Assembly (NCBI GenBank): GCA_030390025.1
Contig: CM059430.1
Span: forward strand, 73,222,001 to 73,286,000
Length of the DNA: 64,000 bases
Origin: Squalus acanthias
Taxonomy: Eukaryota
Reading direction: 5' to 3'
Below the pieces are notes generated by a model. That model saw only the letters and a list, made by a program, of their open reading frames with translations. It was not told the origin of the DNA and did not search any database. How positions within the stretch are numbered: position 1 is the first letter of the stretch; each line of letters begins with the position of its first letter. A program made the translations under genes and the position numbers. Of this stretch, positions 395 to 59,225 are shown piece after piece.

Positions 395-1831
395 TCACGT
401 TCTGTATCGTGACATGAACCCGATATCGCGATTGAGGCCATCCTCATGAGTGCGGAACTTGGCTATCAGTTTCTGCTCTATGATTTTGCGCTGTCGTGTA
501 TCTCGAAGGCCGCCTTGGAGAACGCTTACCCGCAGATCCGAGGCTGAATGCCCCTGGCTGCTGAAGTGTTCCCCGACTGGGAGGCAACCCTCCTGCCTGG
601 CGATTGTTGCGCGGTGTCCGTTCATACGTTGTCTCAGTGTCTGCATGATCTCGCCGATGTACCATGCTCTGGAGCATCCTTTACTGCAACGTATCAGGTA
701 GACAACGTTGGCCGAGTCACATGAGTATGTACCGTGTACCTGGTGGGTAGTGTCCTCACGTGTAATGATGGTATCTGTGTCCATGATTTGGCATGTCTTG
801 CAGAGGTTGCCGTGGCAGGGTTGTGTGGTGTTTTGTTTGCTGTTCTCCTGAAAGATGGGTAATCTGCTGTGAACGATGGTACTTTTGAGGTTAGGCGGCT
901 GCTTGAAGGCGAGTAGTGGAGGCGTGGGGATGGCCTTAGCAAGGTGTTCGTCGTCATCGATGACATGTTGAAGGCTGCGAAGAACATGGCGTAGTTTTTC
1001 CGTACCGGGGAAGTACTGGACGACGTAGGGTACTCTGTTGGTTGTGTCCCGTGTTCGTCTTCTGAGGAGGTCTATGCGGTTTTTTGCTGTGGCCCGTCGG
1101 AACTGTCGATCGACGAGTCGAGCGTCATATCCCGTTCTTACGAGAGCGTCTTTCAGTGTCCGTAGGTGTCCATCGCGTTCCTCCTCGTCTGAGCAGATCC
1201 TGTGTATTCGCAGGGCTTGTCCATAGGGGATGGCTTCTTTAACGTGGTTAGGGTGGAAGCTGGAGAAGTGGAGCATCGTGAGGTTGTCCGTGGGCTTGCG
1301 GTAGAGTGAAGTGCTGAGGCGTCCGTCTTTGATGGAGATTCGTGTGTCCAAGAATGAAACCGATTCTGAGGAGTAGTCCATGGTGAGTTTGATGGTGGGA
1401 TGGAACCTGTTGATGCTATCGTGCAGTCCTTTCAGTGATCCTTCGCCGTGGGTCCAAAGGAAGAAGATGTCGTCGATGTATCTGGTGTACAGCGTTGGTT
1501 GGAGGTCCTGTGAAGCGAAGAAGTCTTGCTCGAACTTGTGCATGAAGATCTTGGCGTATTGGGGTGCGAATTTGGTCCCCATGGCTGTTCCGTGTGTTTG
1601 GGTGAAAAAATGGTTGTCGAAGGTGAAGACATTGTGGTCAAGGATGAAGCGGATGAGTTGTAAGATGGCGTCCGGAGATTGGCTGTTGTTGGTGTTGAGT
1701 ACTGAGGCTGTCGCAGCGATGCCGTCATTGTGGGGGATATTGGTGTAGAGTGCCGATACGTCCATTGTGACGAGGAGTGTTCCTGGTTCAACTGGTCCAT
1801 GGGTGCTGAGTTTCTGCAAGAAGTCTGTAGT
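395..1831 (-). CDS. Penelope-like RT (C-terminal part) plus GIY-YIG endonuclease, reading frame uninterrupted
   Basis: Motifs LVTMDVSALYTNIP, GTAMGTKFAP, RYIDD, Cys linker PCHGNLCKTC, VVYLIRC...WYIGE, GLN. The first 17 aa of the track ORF (1832-1882) are antisense read-through of the inverted repeat. Confidence 0.93.
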   Translation of the reverse strand, partial: TTDFLQKLSTHGPVEPGTLLVTMDVSALYTNIPHNDGIAATASVLNTNNSQSPDAILQLIRFILDHNVFTFDNHFFTQTHGTAMGTKFAPQYAKIFMHKFEQDFFASQDLQPTLYTRYIDDIFFLWTHGEGSLKGLHDSINRFHPTIKLTMDYSSESVSFLDTRISIKDGRLSTSLYRKPTDNLTMLHFSSFHPNHVKEAIPYGQALRIHRICSDEEERDGHLRTLKDALVRTGYDARLVDRQFRRATAKNRIDLLRRRTRDTTNRVPYVVQYFPGTEKLRHVLRSLQHVIDDDEHLAKAIPTPPLLAFKQPPNLKSTIVHSRLPIFQENSKQNTTQPCHGNLCKTCQIMDTDTIITREDTTHQVHGTYSCDSANVVYLIRCSKGCSRAWYIGEIMQTLRQRMNGHRATIARQEGCLPVGEHFSSQGHSASDLRVSVLQGGLRDTRQRKIIEQKLIAKFRTHEDGLNRDIGFMSRYRT

Positions 1832-2075
1832 GTTCATGTCACGATACAGAACGTGACTTGACATCATGGCCGGTCTTCCCATGTGTTTTTTTTTTTAAAA
1901 GGCTAACACAAGAACACAAATTGACAGGATATGCAGCCAGCAGGTGGTTTGACACGTTGGTCCCCCCTGGGACACATCTCATTGTCTTGACTGTGCTCTT
2001 TGTTGCAGGGAATAATGTGAATAGATTTTGTCTGGGTTTAAATTGTGAATTCTGGGAGATTCTCTCATTGCTAAC

Positions 2076-2246: not shown

Positions 2247-5200
2247 GAATCATGTTAGAATGCTGCACAGAAAGAGGCCATTCGTCCCAACGTGTCTAAG
2301 CCGGCTCCTTAATAGCGCTATCGAAGTAGTCCCACTCCCAGGCTCTTTCCCCATAGTTCTACATTTTTTTCCCTATTCAAGTATTGATCCAATTCCTTTT
2401 TGAAAGTTATTTTTGTATCTGCTTCCAGCACCCTTTCAGGAAGTGCATTCCAGATCATAACATGTCGTGGTGTATTTTTTTTCCTCATGTCTACTCAGGT
2501 TCTTCTGCCAATTACCTTAATCTTTAACCACCCTGCTGCCACTGTACACAGTTTCTCTTTATTTAGTCAATATAAAACCATCATGATTTTGAACACCTCC
2601 ATCAAATCTCCCCGTTACTTTCTCTGCTCTTTTTGCTAGTCTACCAACGTCACTGAAGTCTTTCATCGCTGTTAATATTCTGTGCAACCTTTCTAAGGCC
2701 TTGACATCTTTCCTGAAGAGTCGTGCCCAGAATTGGCAACAATCCTGCGGCTGGGGATTAACCCGTGTTTTATAAAGTCTTAGCATTTTCTCCTTGCTTT
2801 TGTACTCTATTTGTAAAGCCAAGGTTATTGTATTTATTTTAACTGCCTTCTCAACTTGTACTTCCAGCTTCAAAGTCTTGTGTATGTACACTCCAAGGTC
2901 GCTTTATTCGAGACTCCCCTTTTAAATAGAACCATTTAGTTTATATTGCTCTCCTCATTTTTCCACCCAAAATGAATCAGTTCCCGCTTCTATGCGTTAA
3001 AATTCATTTGCCACGTGACTTCCCATTTGACCAGTCTGTCTGTGCCCTCCTGATGTCTACTGATGTCCTGCTCACCGTTTACTATATTTACGAGTTTAGT
3101 ACAGAAATATAGAAACATAGAAAAATAAGAGCAGGAGTAGGCCATTCGGCCCTTCGAGTCTGCTCCGCCATTCAATATGCTAATGGCTGATCCTCTATCT
3201 CAATACCATATTCCCCCTCTCTCCCCATACCCTTTGATGCCTTTTGTGTCTAGAAATTTATCTCTCCTTCTTAAATATATTCAGTGACTTGGCGTCCACA
3301 GCCTTCTGTGGTGGAAAATTCCAAAGGTTCACCACACATTTCTCCTCATCTCACTCCTAAATATCATACTCCGTATCGTGAGACTGTGACCACTCGTTCT
3401 AGACCCCGCAGCCAGGGGAAACATTCTCCCTGCATCCGATCTGTCCAGCTCTGTCAGAATTGTATACGTTTCAATGCCATCCCTTCTCATTCTTCTAAAC
3501 TCTAGTGAATACAGACCTAGTCGATCCAATCTCTCCTCAGACGACAGTCCTGCCATCCCAGGAATCAGTTTCGTGAACATTCGCTGCACTCCCTCTAAGG
3601 TAAGTATATTCCATTCAGTACATAGTACTCCAGGTGTGGTGTCACCAAGGCCCTGCATAACTGTAGTGAGACATCCTTGCTCCTGTACTCAAATCCTCTT
3701 GCAATGAAGGCCGACATACCATTTGCCTTCCTAACTGCTTGCTGAACCGGCATGTTTGCTTTCAGTGACTGGTGTGCAAGGACACCCAGGTTCCTTTGTA
3801 CATCAGCATTTCCCAATCTATCATTATTTAAATAATATTCTACCTCTCTGTTTCCCTAACGAAGTGGCTAACTTCACATTTATCCACGTTATACTGCATC
3901 TGCCATGTATTTGCCCACTCAAAACAATTTGTCTAAATCGCCTTGAAGCCTCTTTGCATCCTACTGACAAGTCACAATCCCACCTAGTTTCGTGTCGTCA
4001 GCAAACATGGAAATATTACATTTGGTTCCCTCATCCAAAACATTGATATATATTGTGAAAGCTGAGGATCAAGCACTGATCCATGAGGTACCCCACTAGT
4101 CACCGCCTGCCACCCCGAAAAAGACACATTTATTCCTACTCCCTGTTTCCTCTCTGTTAACCATTTTCAATCCATGCCAATATATTACCTCCAATCCCAT
4201 GTGCTTTAATTTTGCACACTACCCTCTTATGTGAGACTTTATCAAAGGCCAGCTGAAAATCCAAATACACCACATTCAGTTGTTTTCCTTTATCTATTCT
4301 GCCAGTTACATCCATTAGGTTTGTCAAGCACGATTTCCCTGTCATAAATCCATGTTGAATTTGTCTAATCCCGTTGATATTTTCGAAGTGTCCTGTTATC
4401 ACATCTTTAAAATGAACTCTAGCATTTTCCCTGCTACTGAGGTTAGGCTAACCGGTCTGTAGTTCCCTGTTTCCAAACACCCTCCTTTTTTAAATAGTGT
4501 GGTTACATTTGCCACCTTCCAATCTGCAGGAACTGTTCCATAATCTGTAGAATGTTGGAAGATGACAAACAATGCATCCACTATTTCCATGGCTACCTCT
4601 TTTAGTACACTGGAATGCAGATTATCAGGCCCTGGGGATTTATCAGCTTTCAGTCCCATTAATTTCCCCATGCACTATTTTTTTCACTAATACTAATTTC
4701 ATTTAATTCCTCCTTCTCACTAGACACTTGGTTCTCTAGCATTTCCGGGAAGTTATTTGTGTTCTCCTCCGTGAAGACAGAAACAAAGTATGTGTTCAAT
4801 TGCCCTGCCATTTCCTTGTTCCCCATTATAAATTCTCCCGTTTCTGACTGTATCATCTCCAAACAAAAAGAGCACTGTCCCCTGGGATGCAACAATGCGC
4901 ACTTCCCTCCAGTCCGTAAAACAACCATTCACCACTAACCTTTGCTTTCTAACCCTTTGTCACTCTCGTATCCACCTAGCCACAACTCCTTTAATCCTAT
5001 GGGTTTCAATTTTACTAACAGTATATTACGTGGTGCTTTATCAAACGCTTTTTGAAAGACAATATACACAACATCAACCGCAAATCCTCATGCACACTTT
5101 CCCTTAATTCATCAACTAACTCATTTAAGTTAGTAAAACACGAGTTGCCTTTAACCTTAGGATGACTCTCCTGTAATTGCTGAGATTTTCCGTAGTTCCT

Positions 5201-15957: not shown

Positions 15958-16012
15958 ATGTTTATGAGTGGAGCAACTTGGGGCCTATGTTTCCTGGACA
16001 TTTTTTATCCAG
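15958..16012 (+). CDS. IgSF receptor exon 1: leader peptide MFMSGATWGLCFLDIFYP
   Basis: ATG, 18 largely hydrophobic codons, phase-1 donor CAG|GTAGAA matching the phase of the V exon. Confidence 0.75.
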
Positions 16013-16348: not shown

Positions 16349-16660
16349 TTGCTGTGGACACTTCGGGTAAGGTGACTCCGGGCATTGTACAAATGAAAGC
16401 GCTCATAGGTGCAAACCTTACCTTACAATGCCCTTTCCCCTTCCATCAGCACCATTCAAACGTAAACGTTTATTGGTGGAGAGAGGGTAACGATACCATC
16501 CTGCAAGAAGATAGCAGAAAACTGTTTCAAGTAAAGAAAGGCGGCGCCTACCTTCACCTTCTCTATGTGAAGATCCCGGACGCCGGATGGTATCGGTGTG
16601 TAGCCAAGGTTGGGTATCGCCCGGTGGGAAAAAGAACTCGTGTAAAACTTGTTGTATACG
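16349..16660 (+). CDS. IgSF receptor exon 2: V-set domain with germline-joined J-like strand
   Basis: TAG acceptor; LTLQC...VYWWR...AYLHL..VKIPDAGWYRC...VGKRTRVKLVVY; donor G|GTAAGT; phase 1/1. Confidence 0.93.
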
Positions 16661-17270
16661 GTAAGTGTTAGTGGAACTGGAATCGTGGAGAGTTTACTTG
16701 GTGTCGATATTGATACTATACTTAACAAGTAATTTCAATAGGGAATTGCCCTATATATAAAACAGTACAGCGTTCTTCTTGTTTGGAACGACACGTGTTC
16801 AAAAATAAGGAACCGTTTCCAGTTCCAGACTCTTTGAAAAATGTGAAACTGAACTTTATCATCAATTGTGATTTAATTGTATATTTATCAAGTAAAGTGA
16901 ATTCAAGGCTGCGAAATAAAACGTGTCTTTCTAATTTTAGCACTGAGAAGCAGGATGAAAAGTCTTAGGGTTATTTGCAATGTTAAACAAGTTTAAAGGC
17001 CCGATATCTCATTTTGAAAGCAGAGGAGAGGATACCAAACAATCACATCCCTATCATTTAGACGGAACGCTTGCAATTTCTGCTATCTGGAAAAAAATCC
17101 TGAACCGCCGTTCGGTAAAACTGGCGAGATGCACACGATAAACCAAGTGCCGTAGTCCAGACAGAGATTCTAATTTGATCCTTTCCATCCAGAAGAGGAA
17201 AATGTTCTCTATGTATCAATAAAATCCGACTTGCACTATTGCCGTAGTTTAAGCACAACATGCCGATTCG

Positions 17271-18955
17271 AAAACATAGAAACATAGAAAAATAGGAGCA
17301 GGAGTAGCCCATTCAGCCCTTCCAGCCTGCTCCGCCATTCAATATGATCATGGCTGATCCTCTATCCCAATACCATATTCCCCCTCTCTCCCCATACCCC
17401 TTGATGCCTTTTGTGTCTAGAAATCTATCTATCGCCTTCTTAAATATATTCAGTGACTTCGCCGCCACAGCCTTCTGTGGTAGAAAATTCCATTGGTTCA
17501 CCACCCTCTGAGTGAAAATAAATTTTCCTCATTTCAGTCCTAAATGTCCTACCCCGTATCCTGAGTCTGTGACGCATCGTTCTCGACCACCAGCCAAAGG
17601 AAACATCCTCCCTGCATCCAGTCTGTCTAGCCCTGTCAGAATTGTACACGTTTCAATGAGATCCCCTCTCATTCTTCTAAACTCTACTGAATACAGGCAT
17701 GCTCGACCCAATCTCTCCTCATCCGACAGTCCTGCCATCCCAGGAATCAGACTGGTGAACTTTGGCTGCACTCGCTCTGTGGCAAGTATATCCTTTCTTA
17801 GGTAAGGAGACCACAACTGCACACAGTACTCCAGGTGTTGTCTCACTAAGGCCCTGTATAACTGTTGTAAGACTCCCTTGCTCCTGTACTCAAATCCCCT
17901 TGCAATGAAGGCCAACATACCATTTGCCTTTCTAACTGCTTGCTGCACCTGCATGTTTGCGTTCAGTGACTGGTGTACAAGAGCGCCCAGTTCCCTTTGT
18001 ACATCAACATTTCCCAATCTATCAATATTTAACTAATACTCTGCCTTTCTGTTTTTTCTACCGAAGTGGATAACTTCACGTTTATCCACGTTATACTGCA
18101 TCTGCCACGTATTTGCCCACTCACTGAACATGTCTACATCGCCGTGAAGCCTATTTGCATCCTCCTCACAACTCACAATCCCACCTAGTTTCGGGTCGTC
18201 AGCAAACTCGGAAGTATTACATTTGGCTCCCTCATCCAAATCATTGATATATATTTTGAATAGCTGCAGCCGAAGCACTGATCTCTGCGGTACCCCACAA
18301 GTCACCGCCTGCCACCCTGAAAAAGACCCATTTTTTCCTACTCTCTCTTTACTATCTGTTAATCAATTTTCAATCCATGCCAGTATATTACCCCCAATCG
18401 CATGTGCTTTATTTTTGCACACTAACCTCTTATGTGGGACTTTATCAATGGCCTTCTGAAAATCCAAATACACCACATCCACTGGTTCTCCCTTATCTAT
18501 TCCACCAAACATTCCTCAAACAGTTCCAGTAGGTTTTTGTAACATGATTTCCCTTTCATAAATCCATGTTGACTCTATCTATACGAATTGATATTTCTAA
18601 GTGTCCTGTTATCAAATCCTTTTTCATAGACTCTAGCATTTGCCCTGGTGCTGATGCTAGGCTAACCGGTCTGTAGTTCCCTGTTTTCTCTCTCCCTCCT
18701 TTTTTCAATAGTGGTGTTACATTTGCCACCCTCCAATCTGCAGGAACTGTTCCATAATCTATCGAATTTTGGAAGATGACAATCAATGCATCCACTATTT
18801 CCATGGCTACCTCTTTTAGTACTCTGGGATGCAGAATATCAGGCCCTGGGGATTTATCGGCTTTCAGTTCCATTAATTTATACAACACTCTTTTTTTACT
18901 AATACTAATTTCCTTTAATTCCTCCTTCTCACTAGACCCTTGCTTCTCTAGCATT
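17271..18955 (-). mobile_element. HER1-like CR1 LINE in intron 2
   Basis: (AAACATAG)n tail. RT motifs GVPQRSVL, FADD, KANGMLAFIARG, HLEYCVQLWSP. Confidence 0.93.
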
Positions 18956-19237: not shown

Positions 19238-19543
19238 CTGTACCCGCTGCGCTGAATAATGTCCCCATGACATCCGAAGGGGCTTCACCTGCTTTTCTGA
19301 GACACCAGTGCAGATCGGCTGCGTTTTATCCGAAGGACTTCAACCTCACCTGGCAAAAAAACGGTACCGAAATTGCGGCAGGATTTCGAACTGAACAACA
19401 GACAAAGACAGAGTGTCTATATGAAGTTATCAGCTCCTTAGAAGAGAAAACAACAATTGAGCGGGGCACAGTTTATACCTGTAAAGTAAATAACGTTTCA
19501 AACTCAATTCCTGGAAATGCCAGCTACACCTTTGCTAACAAAG
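19238..19543 (+). CDS. IgSF receptor exon 3: C1-set domain
   Basis: TTTCATTTAG acceptor; QCRSAAFYPKDFNLTWQKNG...LYEVISSL...VYTCKVNNVS; donor G|GTAATG; phase 1/1. Confidence 0.93.
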
Positions 19544-21163: not shown

Positions 21164-21207
21164 GTGCAAAGAGAAATTCAGTAAATACAAATCAGCATGA
21201 AGATCGG
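21164..21207 (+). CDS. IgSF receptor exon 5: short cytoplasmic exon
   Basis: TTTTATTTCCCACCAG acceptor; GAKRNSVNTNQHEDR; CGG|GTAAGG donor; phase 1/0. Confidence 0.78.
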
Positions 21208-25099: not shown

Positions 25100-27035
25100 C
25101 CTATACCATATAAATGCAGTAATAGAAACAGAAAACAACGTTCAGGTCTCAGTGAGGATAATTTGGAAAAAAGGTATAATATTACGATGAAACACCATAA
25201 AAAATGATATATTTCCTGGTGTGCCTAAAAATCTGATCGCAATATTCGGAGAACCTCTGAGCAAGCGCAATTGCATGAAAATATTGCATAAGTCTTAATA
25301 ATAGTAGGGCCACTATTATGTTCGGAGATACATTCAGATTTAGGGGTCAATGGACAGCCGTATAGATCGAGGAGAGTTGGGCATATTGTATCAAATACAA
25401 AAATGATATAAAGATATTTAAGATAAAAAAGGGGGATAATTGATAAACTAATCAAACTTAAGAGAGGATAAAAATCCTGGCCCAGATGGATTGCATCCAC
25501 GCATATTATAATAAGTTAGGGCAAATATGGCAGGTGCACTATTACTTATATATAACAATGCATTAGAACAGGGAATACTGCAAGGCGACTGGTGGAGAGC
25601 TAAAGTGATTCCTATATTAAAACATGGAAATAGAATAAGTCCCGTGAATTATAGACCAGTTAGCTTAACGCCGGTGGTAGGTAAGAGAGCCGCATATTTT
25701 CTCAAAGCTATCATAGATAAACATATCGAAATTAAAATATAATAGAGTAGGGTTCAAATGGGAGGATTCTGCAGGATCAAACTTATTGAATATTTGAAGC
25801 AGTAACAGCAAGAGTAGACAAGTGTAATGCAGTCGATATAATATATTTGGAGTTTCAAAAAAACATCGATATTGTATCGCATAGTAAACTCATGATTAAG
25901 ATAAGAGCAAGTGGAGTCAGAGGACAGGCAGCACAATCGATAGCAAGCTGGCTACAAAACAGAAAGCAGAGAGTAGGTTTTAATGGTTGTTACTCAGACT
26001 TGCAAATGGTGGGAAGTGGTGTTCCACAGGGATTGCTGATGGGACAAATGTTGTTCACTATTTACATTAATAATTTTGACTCAGAAATCATAAGTTTAAG
26101 TTTAAATTTGCGGACGACACGACATTGGGAAGTGCAGTTCATACAATGGAAGAATATGACAAAATACAGGAAGATAATAATAAGCTTACAGAATAGGCAT
26201 GTAATTTTCAGATGGAATCCAATTTAGATAACTGTGAGGTGGTACAATTTGTTAGGAACAATAGGTAGTCCACATACAGCTAGGATAATAAAAGACTGAA
26301 TGGAGTAGAGGGGCCAAGTAATCTGGGGATACAAATACACAAATCACTAAAAGTAGCGATACATATTAATCAGGCCACATGAAAACAAACCAAGATTGGG
26401 ATTAATTACTAGACAATAGAATTAAAAAGCAGTGAAGTTATGTTAAACTTGTATCGAACCTTGGTTAGATCACCACACTTGCAGTACTGTGCACAGATCT
26501 GGTCTCCATATTATAAAAATGATATAGAGGCACTGGTGAAAGTGAATAAATGATTCACACGAATGGTACCAGAATTGAGAGGATACACTTATCAGGAAAG
26601 GCAGAACAGGCTGGAGCGCTTTCCTCCAGAAGAAATAATGCTGAGGGATAACCTGGTAGAGGTATTTAAGACAATGAAATGGTTTGCTAGGTTAGACGTA
26701 AATAATATGTTTCCAATTGTGGGGAGTCCAAATATTTGGATCATAAATATAAGATATTCACTAAACAATCCAATAGCAAATTTAGAAGAAACGACTTTAT
26801 CCAAAGAGTAGTAAAAATGTGGAATGTGCTACCACAAGGAGCAGTTGATGCAAATAGCATAGATGCATTAAAGGGGACGCTAGATAAGCACATACGGGGG
26901 AAAGTAATAGAAGGATATGCTGATAGGGTTCGATGATTTAGGGTGGGAGGAGACTCCTGTAGAGCATAAACGCTGACTTCGACCAGTTGGGCGGAATGAC
27001 TTGATTCCGTGCTATACATTCGATAGAACTCGATG
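25100..27035 (+). mobile_element. Old CR1 LINE in intron 5
   Basis: NYRPVSLTPVVG, GSGVPQG, VVKMWNVLPQ, CR1 3' UTR. Confidence 0.88.
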
Positions 27036-28974: not shown

Positions 28975-29058
28975 AAAGAACGAGGAGCAGCTGACGATAA
29001 GCTGACGTACACTGCTCTGGATCTGATCGCTTCCAAGAAAACTGCTCAACCTAAATAA
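28975..29058 (+). CDS. IgSF receptor exon 6: ITIM-bearing tail, ends at TAA
   Basis: TTGACTTTCTAG acceptor, phase 0; KERGAADDKLTYTALDLIASKKTAQPK*; ITIM LTYTAL at 29002-29019. Confidence 0.82.
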   Translation, partial: KERGAADDKLTYTALDLIASKKTAQPK

Positions 29059-29219
29059 CAGGAAGAGAGTAAAATATATACAGAGGTACAAATCAGTTCC
29101 GACATAGAAACAACAATCATGCAAATAAGAATAATTTGGTTGAGATGATATTTAGATTTAACGTGACGTAATTTTCCTTTAGCTTTTAAAAAAATATAAA
29201 ACACTCGTTTGTTCCACAG

Positions 29220-29345
29220 ACCAAACATGGCGCCGTTGATAGCAAACTGACTTACGCTGGTACGAATTTTACTGGTTCCAAGAAAACGTCGGAATCTCAA
29301 AAAAAAAAGAATCAAGTCTTGTATACGCAGCGGTGAAGACCAGCA
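29220..29345 (+). pseudogene. Duplicated second Tyr-motif exon, now downstream of the stop and frameshifted
   Basis: TTTGTTCCACAG acceptor; TKHGAVDSKLTYAGTNFTGSKKTSESQKK, then after an A10 run ESSLVYAAVKT in a shifted frame; aligns with exon 6. Confidence 0.75.
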
Positions 29346-43548: not shown

Positions 43549-44755
43549 TGAACAGAGGTGTTCCGCAAAGTGGTCACGAAATCTGCCTTTGGTCTCCCCA
43601 ATGTAGAGTATATCGCATCATGAGCAGCGAATACAGTATAAAGTACACGTAAATCGAAGTTTCACCTGGAAGGAGTGTCTGGGGCCCTGGATAGTGGAAA
43701 GGGAGGGGGTAAAAGTACAGGTGTTGAATATCCTGCGCTTGCATGGTAAGGTGCCGGGAGAAGGGCAAGTTGTGTTGGTGGTGATAGAGGTGTGGACCAT
43801 GGTGTCGCAGAGAGAGCGGTCCCTTTGCAATACTGAAAGGGGATGTGAGGGGAAGATGTATTTGGTGGCGGGATCAAAATGGAGGTGTCGGAAATGGTGT
43901 AGGATGATCCGTTGAAAGTGGAGGTTGGTGGAGTGAAAGGGGAAGACAGGTGGAACCCTTTCGTGGTTCCGGGAGGGAGGGGAAAGAGTGAGAGCAGAAG
44001 TGCAGGATTTAGAATGGACACGGTCACGGGCCTTGTCAACCACGGTAGAGGGGAATCCTCGGTTGAGGAAAAAGGAAGACATTTCAGAAGCAGTAGTATG
44101 GAACGTGGCATCGTCAGAGCAGATACGGTGGAGACAGAGAAACTGGGAGAATGGAATAAAGTCCATACATGACGCGCGGTGAGAGGAAGTGTAGTTCAGG
44201 TAGCTGTGGGAGTCAGTGGCCTTATAGTGAATGTTTGTTAATAGTCTATCCGCAGTGGTGGAGACAAGGAAGTCGAGGAAGGGAAGGGAAGTGTTGGAGA
44301 TGAACCATGTGAAGGTGAGGGAAGGGTGGAAATTGGAAGCAAAGTGAATGGAATTTTCTAGTTCAGGGCCAGAGCAGGAAACGGCACCGATACAGTCATC
44401 AATGTACTAGACAAAGAGGTCAGTAAGGGAGCCTGATTAGAACTGGAACAAAGAATGTTCCACATATCCCACGACAAGGCAGGCATAGCTAGGACCCATG
44501 CGGGTTCCCATAGAAGCACCTTTAATTTGGCGGATGTGAGTGGAGTCAAAGGAGAAGTTGTTCAATGTGAGAACAAGTTCAGCCAGGCGAAGGAGTGTGG
44601 TGGTGGAAGGGGACTGGTTGCGCCACAGTTTAAGGAAGAAGCGGAGTGCCCTCAGGCCATCCTGGTGGGAGATGGAGGTGTAGAGGGATAGGACATCCAT
44701 AGTCCATTTTCTCTTTTTATTTCAGATTTCCAGCATCCGCAGTATTTGGCATTTA
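43549..44755 (-). mobile_element. Second, degenerate Penelope-like element with a short inverted pLTR remnant
   Basis: MDVLSLYTSISHQDGL, GASMGTRMGPSYACL, IPFSQFLCLHRICSD, YCIRCS. 44701-44755 matches the pLTR at 53320-53370 in the opposite orientation to the ORF. Confidence 0.85.
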
Positions 44756-46591: not shown

Positions 46592-49500
46592 AGCGAAAGC
46601 ATAGTGGTTATGTTACTGGGCTAGTAATCCAGAGTCCTGGGTAAGTAATCCAGTAGACGTGAGTTGAAACCCCACCACGACAGCTGGGGAATTTAAATTC
46701 AGTTATTTAAATAAATCTGCAATTTAAAAAAAAAGCTAGTATCAGTAAAGTGAAACATGAATCTTTCGGATTTTCGTAAAAGCCCATCAAGTTCATTAAT
46801 GTCCTTTAGGGGAGGACATCTACAATGCTTACCTGATCTGACCAGTATATGTGGTCCAGTCCCACAAAATTGTGGTTGACTCTTAACTGCCCTCTGAAAT
46901 GGCCGCGCAACCCACGTAGATAAGCCAGTATGAAAAACAATCATAAGAACAAAAACGAAAGGTCCACCCGGCATCGAGCTAGGCATTGGTTTTGGACACG
47001 ACACGACAGTCCAGTCGACCCTGCAAAGTCCTCCTCATCAATATATGGGGACTTGTGCCAAAATTGAGACAGATGTCCCACAGAGTAGTCAAGCTGTCAT
47101 ACTCACAGAATCATACCTTTCAGCGAGCGTCCCAGACATCTCCAGAAAAATGCCTGGGTATGTCCATAATGTCCTGTCCCACCATCGGGTCAGACCCAAC
47201 AGAGGTGGCGGCACAGTGTATCGTCCATGTTGAACAGCACTTGGAAGAAGCACAAAGGGCACAGAATATAATCTGGGTGGAGGAATTCAATATCCATCAC
47301 CAAGATTGGCTCTGTAGCACCAGTACTGACCGAGATGACCGAGTCCTGAAGGGCATAACTGCTAGACTGGGCAGGTGATGAGAGAGCCAGCAGGAGGGAA
47401 AACCCTACCTGAGCTCGAGCCAGCTGCATATGTATATGACAGTATTGCTGGCAGTGACCACTGCATAGTCCTTTGGAGTTGAATCCCGTCTTCAAACTGA
47501 GGACACCCTCTATCCTGTTGTGTAGCACTACCACCGTGCTACAAGGGATAGATTCAGAACATATATAGCAGCTTAAAACTGGGCATCCATGAGGCTCTGT
47601 GGGCCATCAGCAGCAGCAACATGTTGTACCACCACAATCTGTAACCTCGTGGCCTGGAATATCGCTCACTCTACCATTACCATTACCATCAAGCTAGGGG
47701 ACAAACCCTGGGTGAATGAGGAGTGCCGAAGATCATGCCAGGAGCAGCACCAGGCGTACCTAAAAATGAGGTACCAACCTGTGGAAGCTGCAACAGGCTA
47801 GTCAGCGGGAGCAGCATGCTACAGACAGATCCAACAACCAACGGATCAGATCAAAGCTCTGCCGTCCTGTTACATCCAGTCGTGAATGGTGGTGGACCAT
47901 TAAACAACTAACGGGCTAAGGAGGCTCCATGATTATCCCCATCCTCAATGATAGAGGAGCCCAACACGCAAGTACAAAAGACAAGGTTGAAGCGTTTGCA
48001 ACCATTTTCAGCCAGAAGTGCCGAGTGGATGATACATTTCGACCTCTTCCTGAGATCCCCAGCATCACAGAATCCCGTCCTCAACCAATTCGATTAACCC
48101 CACGTGAGAGAATGAAACGGCTTAGCGCACTGAATGCCACAAAGGCTCTGGGTCCCAACAACATCCGGGCTCTCGTGCTGAAGACTTGTCCTCCAGAATT
48201 GCTGCGCCCCAACCCAAGCTGTTCCAGCACAGCTTCAACACTGGCATCTATGCGACAATGTGGAAAACTTCCCAGGTATGTCCTGTCCACAAGAAGCAGG
48301 ACAAATCCAATCCAACCAATTAACGCCCAATCAGTCGACTATCAATCATCAGCAAAGTGATGGAAGGTGTCGTCGACAGTGCTGTCAATCGGTGCATACT
48401 CAGCAATAACCTGCTCAGTTTTAGTTCCACCAGGACCACACAGCTGTAGAACTCATTTGGCCTTTGTGCAAACATGACAAACGAGGTGAGGTGAGAGTGA
48501 CTGCCGTTGACATCAAGGCATCCTTTGACCAAATATAGCATTTAGGAAATTGAAATCAACGGGTATTAGGGGAAGAACTCGCTACTGGCTAGAGTCACGC
48601 CTGGCACCTGATTAAACATTCAGTACCTGCACCATCGGCGTGCCGTGCCTGCAGTGTGTAGAATCTACAAGATGCACTGCAGCAACTCGACAAGGCTTCT
48701 GAAGCATCAGCTTCCAACCACGCGACCTCTTCCAACTAGAAGGACAAGTGCAGCAGGCACTTGGGAACGCCACCACCTCCAAAGTTGCCTGCAAATCAAA
48801 AACCATCCTGACTTGGAAGTATATCGTGTCTCCTTCATCGTCGCTGGGTCAAAATCGTGGAACTCCCTCCCTAACAGCACTGTGGGATTACCTTCACCAC
48901 ACTGATTGCAGCGATTCAAGAAGTAGCTCACCACCACCTTCTCAAGGGCAACTAGGAATGGGCAATAAATGCAGGCCTTGCCAGCGACGCCCACATCCCA
49001 TGAACGAATACAAACATAGGGAGATGGTTGTGGTTGTTGGGAGGCCAATCATCTCAACCTCAAGACATCACTGCAAGTTTTCGTCATGGCAGTGTCCTAG
49101 GCCAACCATCTACAGCTGTATCAACAATAACGTTCTCTCCAACATAAGGTCAGAAGTGGGTATGTTCGTTCAAGATTTCACAGTATTTAGTTCCTGTCAC
49201 CACTCCTAAGATAATGAAGCAGTCCATGCCCGCGTACAAGAAGACCTGGACAACATTCAGCTTGAGCTTATAAGCGGCTAGCAGCATTCGCAGCACACAA
49301 GTGTCAGGCATTACCGTCGCGAACACGATAGATTCTAACCAACTCGGCTTAGCATTACAATCGTTGAATCCCGCAACATCCATATCCTGGGGGTCAACAT
49401 TGATCAGAAACTTAACTGAACAAACCACAAAAACAATATAGCTCTCACAACAGGTCAGAGGCTGAGTATTCTACGGCGGGAGACTCAACTCCTGTCTCTC

Positions 49501-50015
49501 CAAAGCCTTTGCAAGATCTTCAATGCACAAGTCAGGAATGTAATGGGATACTCTCCACTTGCTTGGATGAGTGCAGTTCCAATAATACTCTAGAAGCTAG
49601 ACACCATCCAAGCGAAAGCAGCCCGCTTGATTGGCACACCATACTTCACCTTAAACATTCAATCCCACCATCACCGACGCACCGTGGCTGCAGTGTGTAC
49701 CATCAACAAGATGTGCTGCAGCAACTCGCCAATGCTCCTTCGACAGAACCTCCCAAACACACGACCACTACCACCTAGAAGGACAAGGGTAGCAGCCGCA
49801 TGGGAACACCACCACATGCAAGTTCTCCTGAAAGTCACACAACATCCTGACTTGGAAATATATCATTATTCCTTCATCGTCACTGGGTCAACATCCTTGA
49901 ATTCCCTCCCTATCTATGGGATTACCTTCATCTCACAGACTGTAGCGGTTCAAGAAGCTGGCTCACCGCCTCCTTCTCAAGGGCAACTAGCCAATAATTT
50001 CTGTCCTTGCCAGTG
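46592..50015 (+). mobile_element. Degenerate APE-RT LINE (distinct from HER1) with a tRNA-derived 5' head; a 3' fragment of the same family is nested at ~48609-49012
   Basis: Pol III A/B-box-like head, then LLINIWGLVPKL, EEFNIHH, KDKVEAFATIFSQKCRVDD, CTINKMCCSNSP. Homologous to 57075-59225. Confidence 0.85.
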
Positions 50016-57074: not shown

Positions 57075-59225
57075 TAATTCGTCTTTTATGGGATGTGGGC
57101 GTTGCTGGCAATGCCAGCATTTATTGCCCATCCCTAATTGACCTTCAGAAGGTAGTTGTGAGCCGCCTTCTTGAAACAATGCAGTCCGTGTGGTGAAGGT
57201 CGTATCACAGTGCTGTTAAGGAGGGAGTTCCATGATTGTGACCCAGCGACGATGGAGGATCGGCGATATACTTCTAAGTCAGGATGATGTGTAATTGGAG
57301 GGGTTCTTGGAGGCGGTGGTGTTGCTATGCCCCTGCTGTCCTTGTCCTTGTAGCAGGAGGAAGTTGGGATTTGTGAGGTGATGCCAAAGCAGCCTTGGTG
57401 AGTTGCTGCAGTGCATCTTGTCGATGGTACACACTGCAGCCATGGTAAGACGGTGGTGTAGGGAGTGAATGTTTAAGGTGATGGATGGGGTGTCAATCAA
57501 GCGGGCTGCTTTGTCCTGGTTGGTGTCAAGCTGCTTGAGTGTTGTTGGAGTGGTATTTATCCAAGCAAGTGGAGACTTTTGCATCACACTCCTTATTTGT
57601 GGCTTGTAGATTGTGGAAAGACTTTGGGGAGTCAGGAGGTGAGACATTCGCCGCAGAATACCTAGAATCTGACCTGCTCTTGTTGCCACAATATTTATGC
57701 AGCTGGTCCAGTTAAGTTCCCGATCAATGGTGAGCCCCAGGATGTTGATGGCGGGGGATTCGGCGATGGTAATGCCGTTCAATGTCAAGGGGCTGTGGTT
57801 AGACTCTCGCTTCAAGTAGATAATCATTACCTCGCACTTCTTGGCTTGAATGTTACCTGCCACTTATTAGCCCAAGACTGAACGTCGTCCAGGTCTTCTT
57901 GCTTGCGGGCATGGAATACTTCATTATCTGAGGAGTTGTGAAAGGTGCTGAACACTGTGCACTCATCAGCGAACGTCCCCATATCTGACCTTATGTTGGA
58001 GGGAAGTTAATTGATGAAGCAGCTGAAGATGGTTGGGCCTACGACGCTGTCCTGAGGAACTTCTGCAACGATGCCCTGGGACTGTGATGATTGACCTTCA
58101 ACCATCACAGCCAACTTCGTTTATGCTAGGTATGACTCCAGCCAGTGGAGTATTTCACCCCCAATTTCCATTTACTTCAGTTTTTCTAGGGCTCATTGAT
58201 GCCACTCTCGGTCAAATGCTGCCTTGATATCAAGGGCAGTAACTCTCACCTCACCTATGGAATTTAGCTCCTTTGCCCATGTATCGTCCAAGGGAGCCGA
58301 GTGGTCTTGGTGGAACCCAAACTGGGCATATTTGAACAGGTCATTGATGAGTAAGTGCCGCTTGATAGCACAGTTGACGACACCTTCCATCAGTTTGCTG
58401 ATGATTGAGAGTAGACTCATGCGGCGGTAATTGGCCGTTTTGGATTTGTCCTGCTTTTTGTGGACAAGACATACCTTGGCAGTTTTCCGCATTGTTTGAC
58501 AGATGCCAGTGTTGTAGCTGTACTGGAACAGCTTGGCTAGAGGGGCGGCTAGTTCTGGAGCACAAGTCTTCAGCACGATAGCCGGGATGTTGGCGGGGCC
58601 CATAGCCTTTGCTGTATCCAGTGCGCTCAGTTCTTTTTTGATATAACGTGGAGTGACTCGAATTGGCTGAAGACTGCCTTCTTTGATGGTGGGGACCTCA
58701 GGAGTAGGCCGATATGGATCATCCACTCGGCACTTCTGGCTGAAGATGTTTGTAAACGCTTCAGCCTTGTCTTTTGCACTCACGTGCAAGGCACCACCAT
58801 CATTGAGGATGGAGACATTAATGGAGCCTCTTCCTCACGTTAGTTGTTTAATGTTCAAACACCACTCACAAGTGGACGTGGTAGGTCTGCAGAGCTTTGA
58901 ACTCATCTGTTGATTGTGGAATCGCTTAGCCCTATCTATATCATGTTGCCTCCCCTTTTTAGCATGCATGTTGTCCTGTGTTGCAGCCTACCAGCTTGGC
59001 ACCTCATTTTTAGGTTCGCCTGGTGCTGCTCCTTGCAAGCTCTTCTACATTCCTTATTGAACCAAGGTTGGTCCCCTGGCTCCTTGGTAATGGTAGAGTG
59101 AGGGATATGCCAAGCCATGAGTTTACAGATTTTAATGGAATGCAATTCTGCTGCTGCTGATGGCACACAGCGCCTCATGGATGCCAAGTTTTGAGCTGTT
59201 GATCTGTTCTGAGTCTATAGCGTTT
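57075..59225 (-). mobile_element. APE-RT LINE, same family as 46592-50015, 5'-truncated
   Basis: KAMGPANIP, QFGFHQDHS, ALDIKAAFDREWH, ILGLTIDRELNW; tail GCCCACATCCCAT. Confidence 0.9.

Follow-up and report, generated by a model that had tools for sequence, protein, structure and literature searches.

The segments at 28975-29085 and from 29220 onward of the window (a stretch of 64,000 nucleotides of Squalus acanthias DNA) are paralogous phase-0 exons, and their duplication is real and old. We consider it probable that these segments, here called tail units A and B, are old tandem copies of a 111-nt phase-0 exon with two tyrosine codons, likely spliced in series into the cytoplasmic tail of a receptor predicted to be inhibitory, and that the gene in the window stops after the first of its tyrosines.

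A V-C1-TM receptor gene on the plus strand ends with units A and B (Table 1); its transmembrane exon is preceded by a single V and a single C1 exon, its splice sites are all canonical, and its frame is open until a TAA in unit A. The series of leader, V, C1, transmembrane, short cytoplasmic exon and tyrosine units is closely homologous to database models of a V-C1-TM 'SIRP-like' cluster, and the combination of an uncharged transmembrane segment with the motif LTYTAL fits an ITIM-bearing receptor. The transmembrane exon differs from that of an intact paralog (L084:7201-7363) at several places, including a Gln in the hydrophobic stretch. A further exon-like stretch at about 25120-25174 was rejected as a candidate, as in phase 0 it opens with stops and the models of relatives have no exon there; a unit profile run over the window finds two units only, and none at this position. 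Elsewhere, the window contains decayed non-LTR retroelement pieces at 398-1894 (minus strand, with a 499-codon reverse-transcriptase-like frame), 3100-4900, 17270-18950, 43621-44720 (minus strand), 47500-50000 and 57100-59200, and an inverted copy of 340 nt (80-419 and 1832-2172, 98.5% alike).

Table 1. Features of the receptor gene, in coordinates of the window.
Feature	Position	Strand	Basis and remarks
Leader exon, ATG at 15958, phase 1 donor	15958..16012	+	tblastn with P0001/P0002, splice sites, translation
V-type Ig exon, open	16349..16660	+	Pfam Ig matches, V-set below its cut-off
C1-set Ig exon, open	19238..19543	+	PF07654, 39.7 bits against a cut-off of 21
Transmembrane exon, hydrophobic stretch without charged residue	20527..20640	+	tblastn, translation
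Short first cytoplasmic exon, 44 nt, phase 1 to phase 0	21164..21207	+	matches P0002 residues 262-275
Tail unit A, 111-nt symmetric phase-0 exon, Tyr1 29008 (LTYTAL), Tyr2 29077	28975..29085	+	
Premature TAA (CAA in paralogs), 27 nt before the donor	29056..29058	+	contigs of two samples
A-B intron, 134 nt, GT donor is the would-be Val codon of motif 2, read-through frame 20 codons	29086..29219	+	
Tail unit B, likely last exon	29220..29345	+	Tyr3 29253 decayed to LTYAGT, Tyr4 29324 out of frame
2-nt insertion in A run, unit B	near 29298	+	comparison with paralogs, contigs of two samples

The local DNA alignment of units A and B scores 101.5, a value that none of 1000 dinucleotide shuffles reaches (mean 37.5, sd 6.2, maximum 70) and that compares with a best score of 69 among 900 other 280-nt windows on both strands. 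The exons are identical at 49/78 nt in the window gene (first 78 nt) and at 74/111 nt in the closest intact paralog. The introns upstream of the two units do not align (571 of 1000 shuffles score as high), and the downstream flanks align weakly (35 of 1000). Each unit has its own acceptor, tttctag/AAAGAA at 28975 and tccacag/ACCAAA at 29220, and the same phase at both ends, as in a symmetric tandem exon duplication. The initial annotation had claimed the alignment and a phase-0 AG acceptor for each segment, and the alignment statistics and splice-site reading agree with it; a lack of nucleotide alignment, which it had held to count against the duplication, is not what we find. Both of its translations are present as written, although the 'VQI' of QEESKIYTEVQI falls past the donor GAG/GTACAA (29085/29086) and becomes intronic with splicing.

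The gene belongs to a large family. The V exon has 101 matches at E<=1e-5, located on contig C6 between 57.5 and 76.9 Mb and on two small contigs, so that nearly all lie on one contig in the manner of a clustered multigene locus, and the tail DNA has six further matches of 74-88%. Forty-seven tail loci, drawn from the 60 matches of the tail search and not including all tails of the cluster, contain 89 units, with two units at 40 loci, three at one and a single unit at six. Wider fetches revealed a third unit at three more loci (one of them first seen as single) and, at two single-unit loci, an upstream unit about 6.5 kb away; two or three units are present at 44 of the 46 cluster tail loci, the other two showing one unit in the first fetch. 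An example of an intact paralog is at C6:74,054-74,068 kb, and another repeated pair of tail exons was confirmed in its position 573 kb away.

Several variations on this organization are seen. A three-unit subfamily with six tyrosines comprises L031, L037, L035/L089 and L050 (C6 61.8, 62.2 and 67.9 Mb; C3468), and a matching three-unit tail occurs in the database models P0017 and P0019. Many terminal units (L033:1498-1670, L052, L044 and related units) have a fifth tyrosine (VIYTE, AVYTE, DIYTE) 14-16 residues past Tyr4, in an extension with a dN/dS of about 1. An orphan unit on another chromosome (L076:3156-3266, plus strand; G000:C2 near 53,506,150) is A-type and lacks both a GT donor and a B unit; the 43 kb upstream of it and the 12 kb downstream contain neither a V nor a C1 match. 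It was rejected as a relic from before the duplication, as in the tree it nests inside the A units of one C6 subfamily, and looks like a moved fragment.

Splice-site conservation and automated database models indicate that A and B are likely spliced consecutively into one tail. A GT directly after codon 37 is present in 39/40 non-terminal and 14/46 terminal units (two truncated units and the orphan left out, and paralogs not being independent events), 36 of the 39 reading GTA, so that the donor looks to have been kept only where it is needed. Spliced models with the same A-B junction are found in Callorhinchus, Heptranchias, Heterodontus, Mobula and Pristis; a Heterodontus model joins ESTVYAE to TKHRAADSKLTY, which corresponds to the 29085-to-29220 junction of the window, and has the A/B pair twice. 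The two AB copies of this ABAB tail (P0002) are identical in protein, reflecting either a very recent duplication or an artefact of assembly or annotation. The initial annotation had suggested looking for intact two-unit tails in paralogs and other chondrichthyans, and would have doubted the duplication if orthologs never splice into the counterpart of 29220; intact tails occur in the paralogs and database models, and splicing into this homolog is present in the models of relatives.

In the databases, the proteins closest to the receptor are models from sharks and rays that bear the labels SIRP-alpha-like or B7-H6-like. When the P0002 tail region was used to look for homologs, two Heterodontus models were the only matches, whereas a profile built from 33 shark units picked out 46 of 1.84 billion proteins. 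Of the 20 that were identified, chimaera, sharks and rays account for 15, birds and a snake for four, and a teleost for one. The tyrosines are spaced 23/14/23 in shark tails and likewise in chimaera models. Because the chimaera models share both junction and spacing, the repeat likely predates the split of chimaera, rays and sharks; chimaeras and sharks separated about 400 million years ago. A tree was built from 85 units, excluding five loci whose units are broken; in it, five genes of the window's subfamily have A units and B units that fall into matching subtrees, and a recent duplication inside the window gene was rejected (own A and B as sisters, p-AU 3e-6). For one ancient duplication versus several, the alternatives have p-AU values of 0.17, 0.06 and 0.30 on 143 columns. 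The dN/dS ratio of terminal units is 0.55 (p 0.009, 13 disjoint pairs) and that of penultimate units overall is 0.99.

An unusual feature of unit A is that the Val codon of its second motif is also the GT donor, such that the spliced product reads TIYTET and not IYTEV. We classified 31 stop-free tails from the 41 multi-unit loci (partial tails, stop-bearing tails and the window's own were dropped), using the consensus sequences S/I/V/LxYxxI/V/L for an ITIM and TxYxxV/I for an ITSM given in the accessible part of PMC8631942. Motif 1 is an ITIM in 20/31 and motif 3 in 26/31. Spliced motif 2 ends in Thr in 25/31 and in Asn in 1/31, and conforms to a consensus in only four (two ITSM, two ITIM), whereas the same motif read through into the intron is an ITSM in 24/31 and an ITIM in 4/31. 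In models of other species the motif 2 residue is Thr in 15/24 pattern matches (33 models), at least one of these matches being no junction. Tyr2 is retained in 30 of the 31 tails with TAT and TAC equally used, which argues that it matters at the protein level. The initial annotation had envisaged an ancestral receptor with a four-motif tail made by exon duplication. A multi-tyrosine tail arising by tandem duplication of a two-tyrosine exon is what the intact paralogs and the models of relatives display, but the four motifs are not all consensus motifs, as motif 2 loses its +3 Val upon splicing, and the number is not fixed at four, as tails have 2, 3 or 4 units.

Taken together, the tail suggests the following mode of action. 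The tail is short and likely disordered. Upon ligand binding, its tyrosines would be phosphorylated by Src-family kinases, and SHP-1/SHP-2 would then dock at the ITIM-like motifs 1, 3 and 4, by extrapolation from SIRP-alpha in mammals; motif 2, whose +3 residue (usually Thr) is contributed by the exon that follows, would bind more weakly or bind something else. With phase 0 at both ends, a unit may be added or dropped without a frame shift.

As to the window gene itself, the four Tyr motifs assigned to it initially are reduced to the first, as its tail is open only to the TAA at 29056 and one tyrosine is left. This stop and the 2-nt insertion in unit B are both covered by a 563-nt contig of a second sample, from another study, which differs at a single letter and has no gap, and both are matched by first-sample contigs as well; the TAA and the insertion are not assembly errors, one of the two samples possibly being the source of the assembly. 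The pY+1 residue of LTYTAL changed from Ala to Thr on the window lineage, and in PD-1 experiments a polar residue here weakens SHP-1 recruitment (PMC8631942, in its accessible part). The predicted product is a receptor of about 300 residues with a single ITIM-consensus motif bearing Thr at pY+1, which would serve either as a brake of reduced strength or as a decoy. Transcripts with a stop within 50-55 nt of the last junction escape nonsense-mediated decay, and a transcript of the window gene probably would do so because its TAA is only 27 nt before that junction. Sister genes have lost parts of their tails in other ways: L006 has a stop at Tyr4, L005 has deletions of Tyr1 and in unit B, L007 lacks unit A, and L002/L101 have a frameshifted V exon and an open tail.

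Two doubts bear on these units and on the gene that carries them. That their likeness is an artefact of assembly or sequencing, or a chance resemblance of two ITIM-like motifs, is hardly credible: the frameshift does fall within an A homopolymer, and one sample (the first) also has a contig that is one A shorter, but the alignment statistics, the family-wide occurrence and the gap-free second-sample contig with the same stop all contradict it, and for the duplication this explanation is refuted. A more serious contender, though still the less probable one, is that the window gene is a young pseudogene, with the stop and frameshift as its first lesions, and that only the paralogs matter. The two lesions, the decay of motif 3 to YAGT and the sister copies broken otherwise (frameshifted V, lost motifs) are consistent with this, and the gene may simply be dead because the substitution ratio on its lineage is close to neutral (8 synonymous and 27 non-synonymous changes); this ratio fails to separate it from its intact paralog (5 and 17). 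Against a pseudogene, both lesions are confined to the tail, and neither the five exons upstream nor any splice site is damaged, with zero lesions in 831 nt of upstream coding sequence versus about 3.6 expected neutrally from intron rates (a rough P0 of 0.03, the expected count being inflated by indels in intron homopolymers). From its sequence, we regard the window gene as somewhat more likely a truncated receptor than a dead gene.

Two further proposals concern what the tail does and where it came from, and both seem unlikely to us. The first is a splice switch, in which retention of the A-B intron would give a two-tyrosine ITIM+ITSM tail, with a TVYAQV-type motif predicted to be able to bind SAP/EAT-2 or SHP-2, and splicing would give a four-tyrosine tail with motif 2 disabled. 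It is favored by the restoration of motif 2 on read-through described above, the conservation of the T-x-Y-A block with synonymous variation, unit starts just 240-470 nt apart in most genes, many weak donors (GTACAA, GTACAG, GTAGGA) and one database model, P0032, that reads through the donor. The read-through frames, however, vary from 2 to 50 or more codons, with a dN/dS of 0.93 and indels in 3/13 pairs, and the Val follows automatically from a GT donor, so that separate selection for it is unneeded. L002 and L004 have an in-frame GT 18 nt into the A-B intron, a possible alternative donor that would keep the motif 2 Val, where the window has AT, and model P0015 has two extra residues (VG) at the A-B junction.

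The other proposal is that the shark pair and the SIRP-alpha tail stem from one duplication in the first jawed vertebrates, with tetrapods later losing the middle intron. The shark-only profile does retrieve SIRP-alpha-like tails from 1.84 billion proteins, namely those of birds and a snake and a mammal-type one (P0049, which we take to be a mammalian SIRP-alpha-like tail), at E-values of 6e-7 to 3e-4; the tyrosine spacing in SIRP-alpha is 24/17/26, the tails align collinearly, and both ectodomains have V plus C1 domains. But the same profile retrieves unrelated teleost receptors and repeat proteins, and teleost receptors of other families score in a range overlapping the SIRP-alpha tails. The SIRP-alpha halves were tested for a one-to-one correspondence with shark A and B and show none: in 8/9 sequences, the ninth being a tie, both halves score closer to shark B than to A, and the two halves resemble each other more than they resemble either shark unit. 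Whole-protein identity of the shark receptor with SIRP-alpha is 21%, and searches of the V and C1 exons against PDB gave no SIRP chain among the matches at E 1e-6. With profile matches this weak, this level of identity and no half-to-half correspondence, the link to SIRP-alpha-type tails drawn in the initial annotation may go no further than analogy; the four tyrosines in two pairs on which it was based are present in intact paralogs and relatives and absent from the window gene. A still broader scenario, that some 100 receptors are tuned by a stackable two-tyrosine exon, with splicing or retention of the intron switching between SIRP-alpha-like and PD-1-like tails and the exon being the ancestral SIRP-alpha building block, we consider quite improbable. 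The reading that we prefer is the more modest one of old tandem exon copies in a predicted inhibitory receptor.

Parts of this are already known: public databases contain models of the family, and there are precedents both for tandemly duplicated exons and for tyrosine motifs interrupted by introns (PMC5112662). New here are the count of units across the family, the finding that their number varies, the position of the donor within motif 2 and the truncated state of the window copy. The literature searched, with most subscription journals and supplements outside its scope, yielded no description of the shark family or its tail exons, and the available portions of PMC12227049 and PMC12975943 contain nothing on the family. 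A recent IgSF survey dates the SIRP family to tetrapods and would for this reason not count the shark family (PMC13262535, available sections). The shark genes offer an exon-level view of how a multi-tyrosine inhibitory tail can be assembled, extended and trimmed in an old vertebrate receptor family whose V-C1 anatomy is antigen-receptor-like, the window gene being a natural one-tyrosine truncation of a brake receptor. Two questions become testable with them: does splicing switch motif 2, and do the SIRP-alpha and shark tails have a common origin, or did the SIRP-alpha tail arise by independent duplication?

Among known systems, the closest are the cartilaginous-fish V-C1-TM cluster models (for example Heterodontus XP_067906072.1, Callorhinchus XP_007902825.2 and Heptranchias XP_067853494.1), labelled 'tyrosine-protein phosphatase non-receptor type substrate 1-like' or 'NCR3 ligand 1-like'; the labels are automatic, without a functional test. 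The window gene shares their exon order, unit length and A-B junction, and its V exon is 67% identical to that of Heterodontus, but it stops after Tyr1, whereas the Heterodontus model has four units. SIRP-alpha is similar in its V and C1 domains, uncharged transmembrane segment, four tyrosines in two similar pairs and LTYAxL..EYAxI/V patterns. All four of its tyrosines lie in the last exon, unlike the shark tail, which is split into repeat exons of variable number; its ectodomain is V-C1-C1 where the shark receptor has one C1, and all its motifs have a hydrophobic +3 residue where shark motif 2 usually has Thr. Mouse SIRP-alpha has eight exons and two C1 domains (PMC12324903), and its recruitment of SHP-1/SHP-2 is described in the accessible parts of that paper and of PMC8631942. 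By analogy, we infer that the shark receptor would work like SIRP-alpha, and do not file it as a member. The ITIM+ITSM tails of PD-1 and BTLA and the TIYxxV/I motifs of the SLAM family (consensus sequences in the available text of PMC8631942 and PMC2212903) resemble one shark unit read through its donor, with an ITIM followed 23 residues later by an ITSM, although the candidate shark ITSM would exist only upon intron retention. The tails of Xenopus Ceacam proteins, as far as PMC5112662 is accessible, have YxxL motifs split by phase-0 introns, and thus share with the shark tail a phase-0 intron inside a tyrosine motif whose last residue comes from the next exon; in Xenopus the next exon completes an activating motif, whereas in the shark it usually substitutes Thr for the consensus residue.
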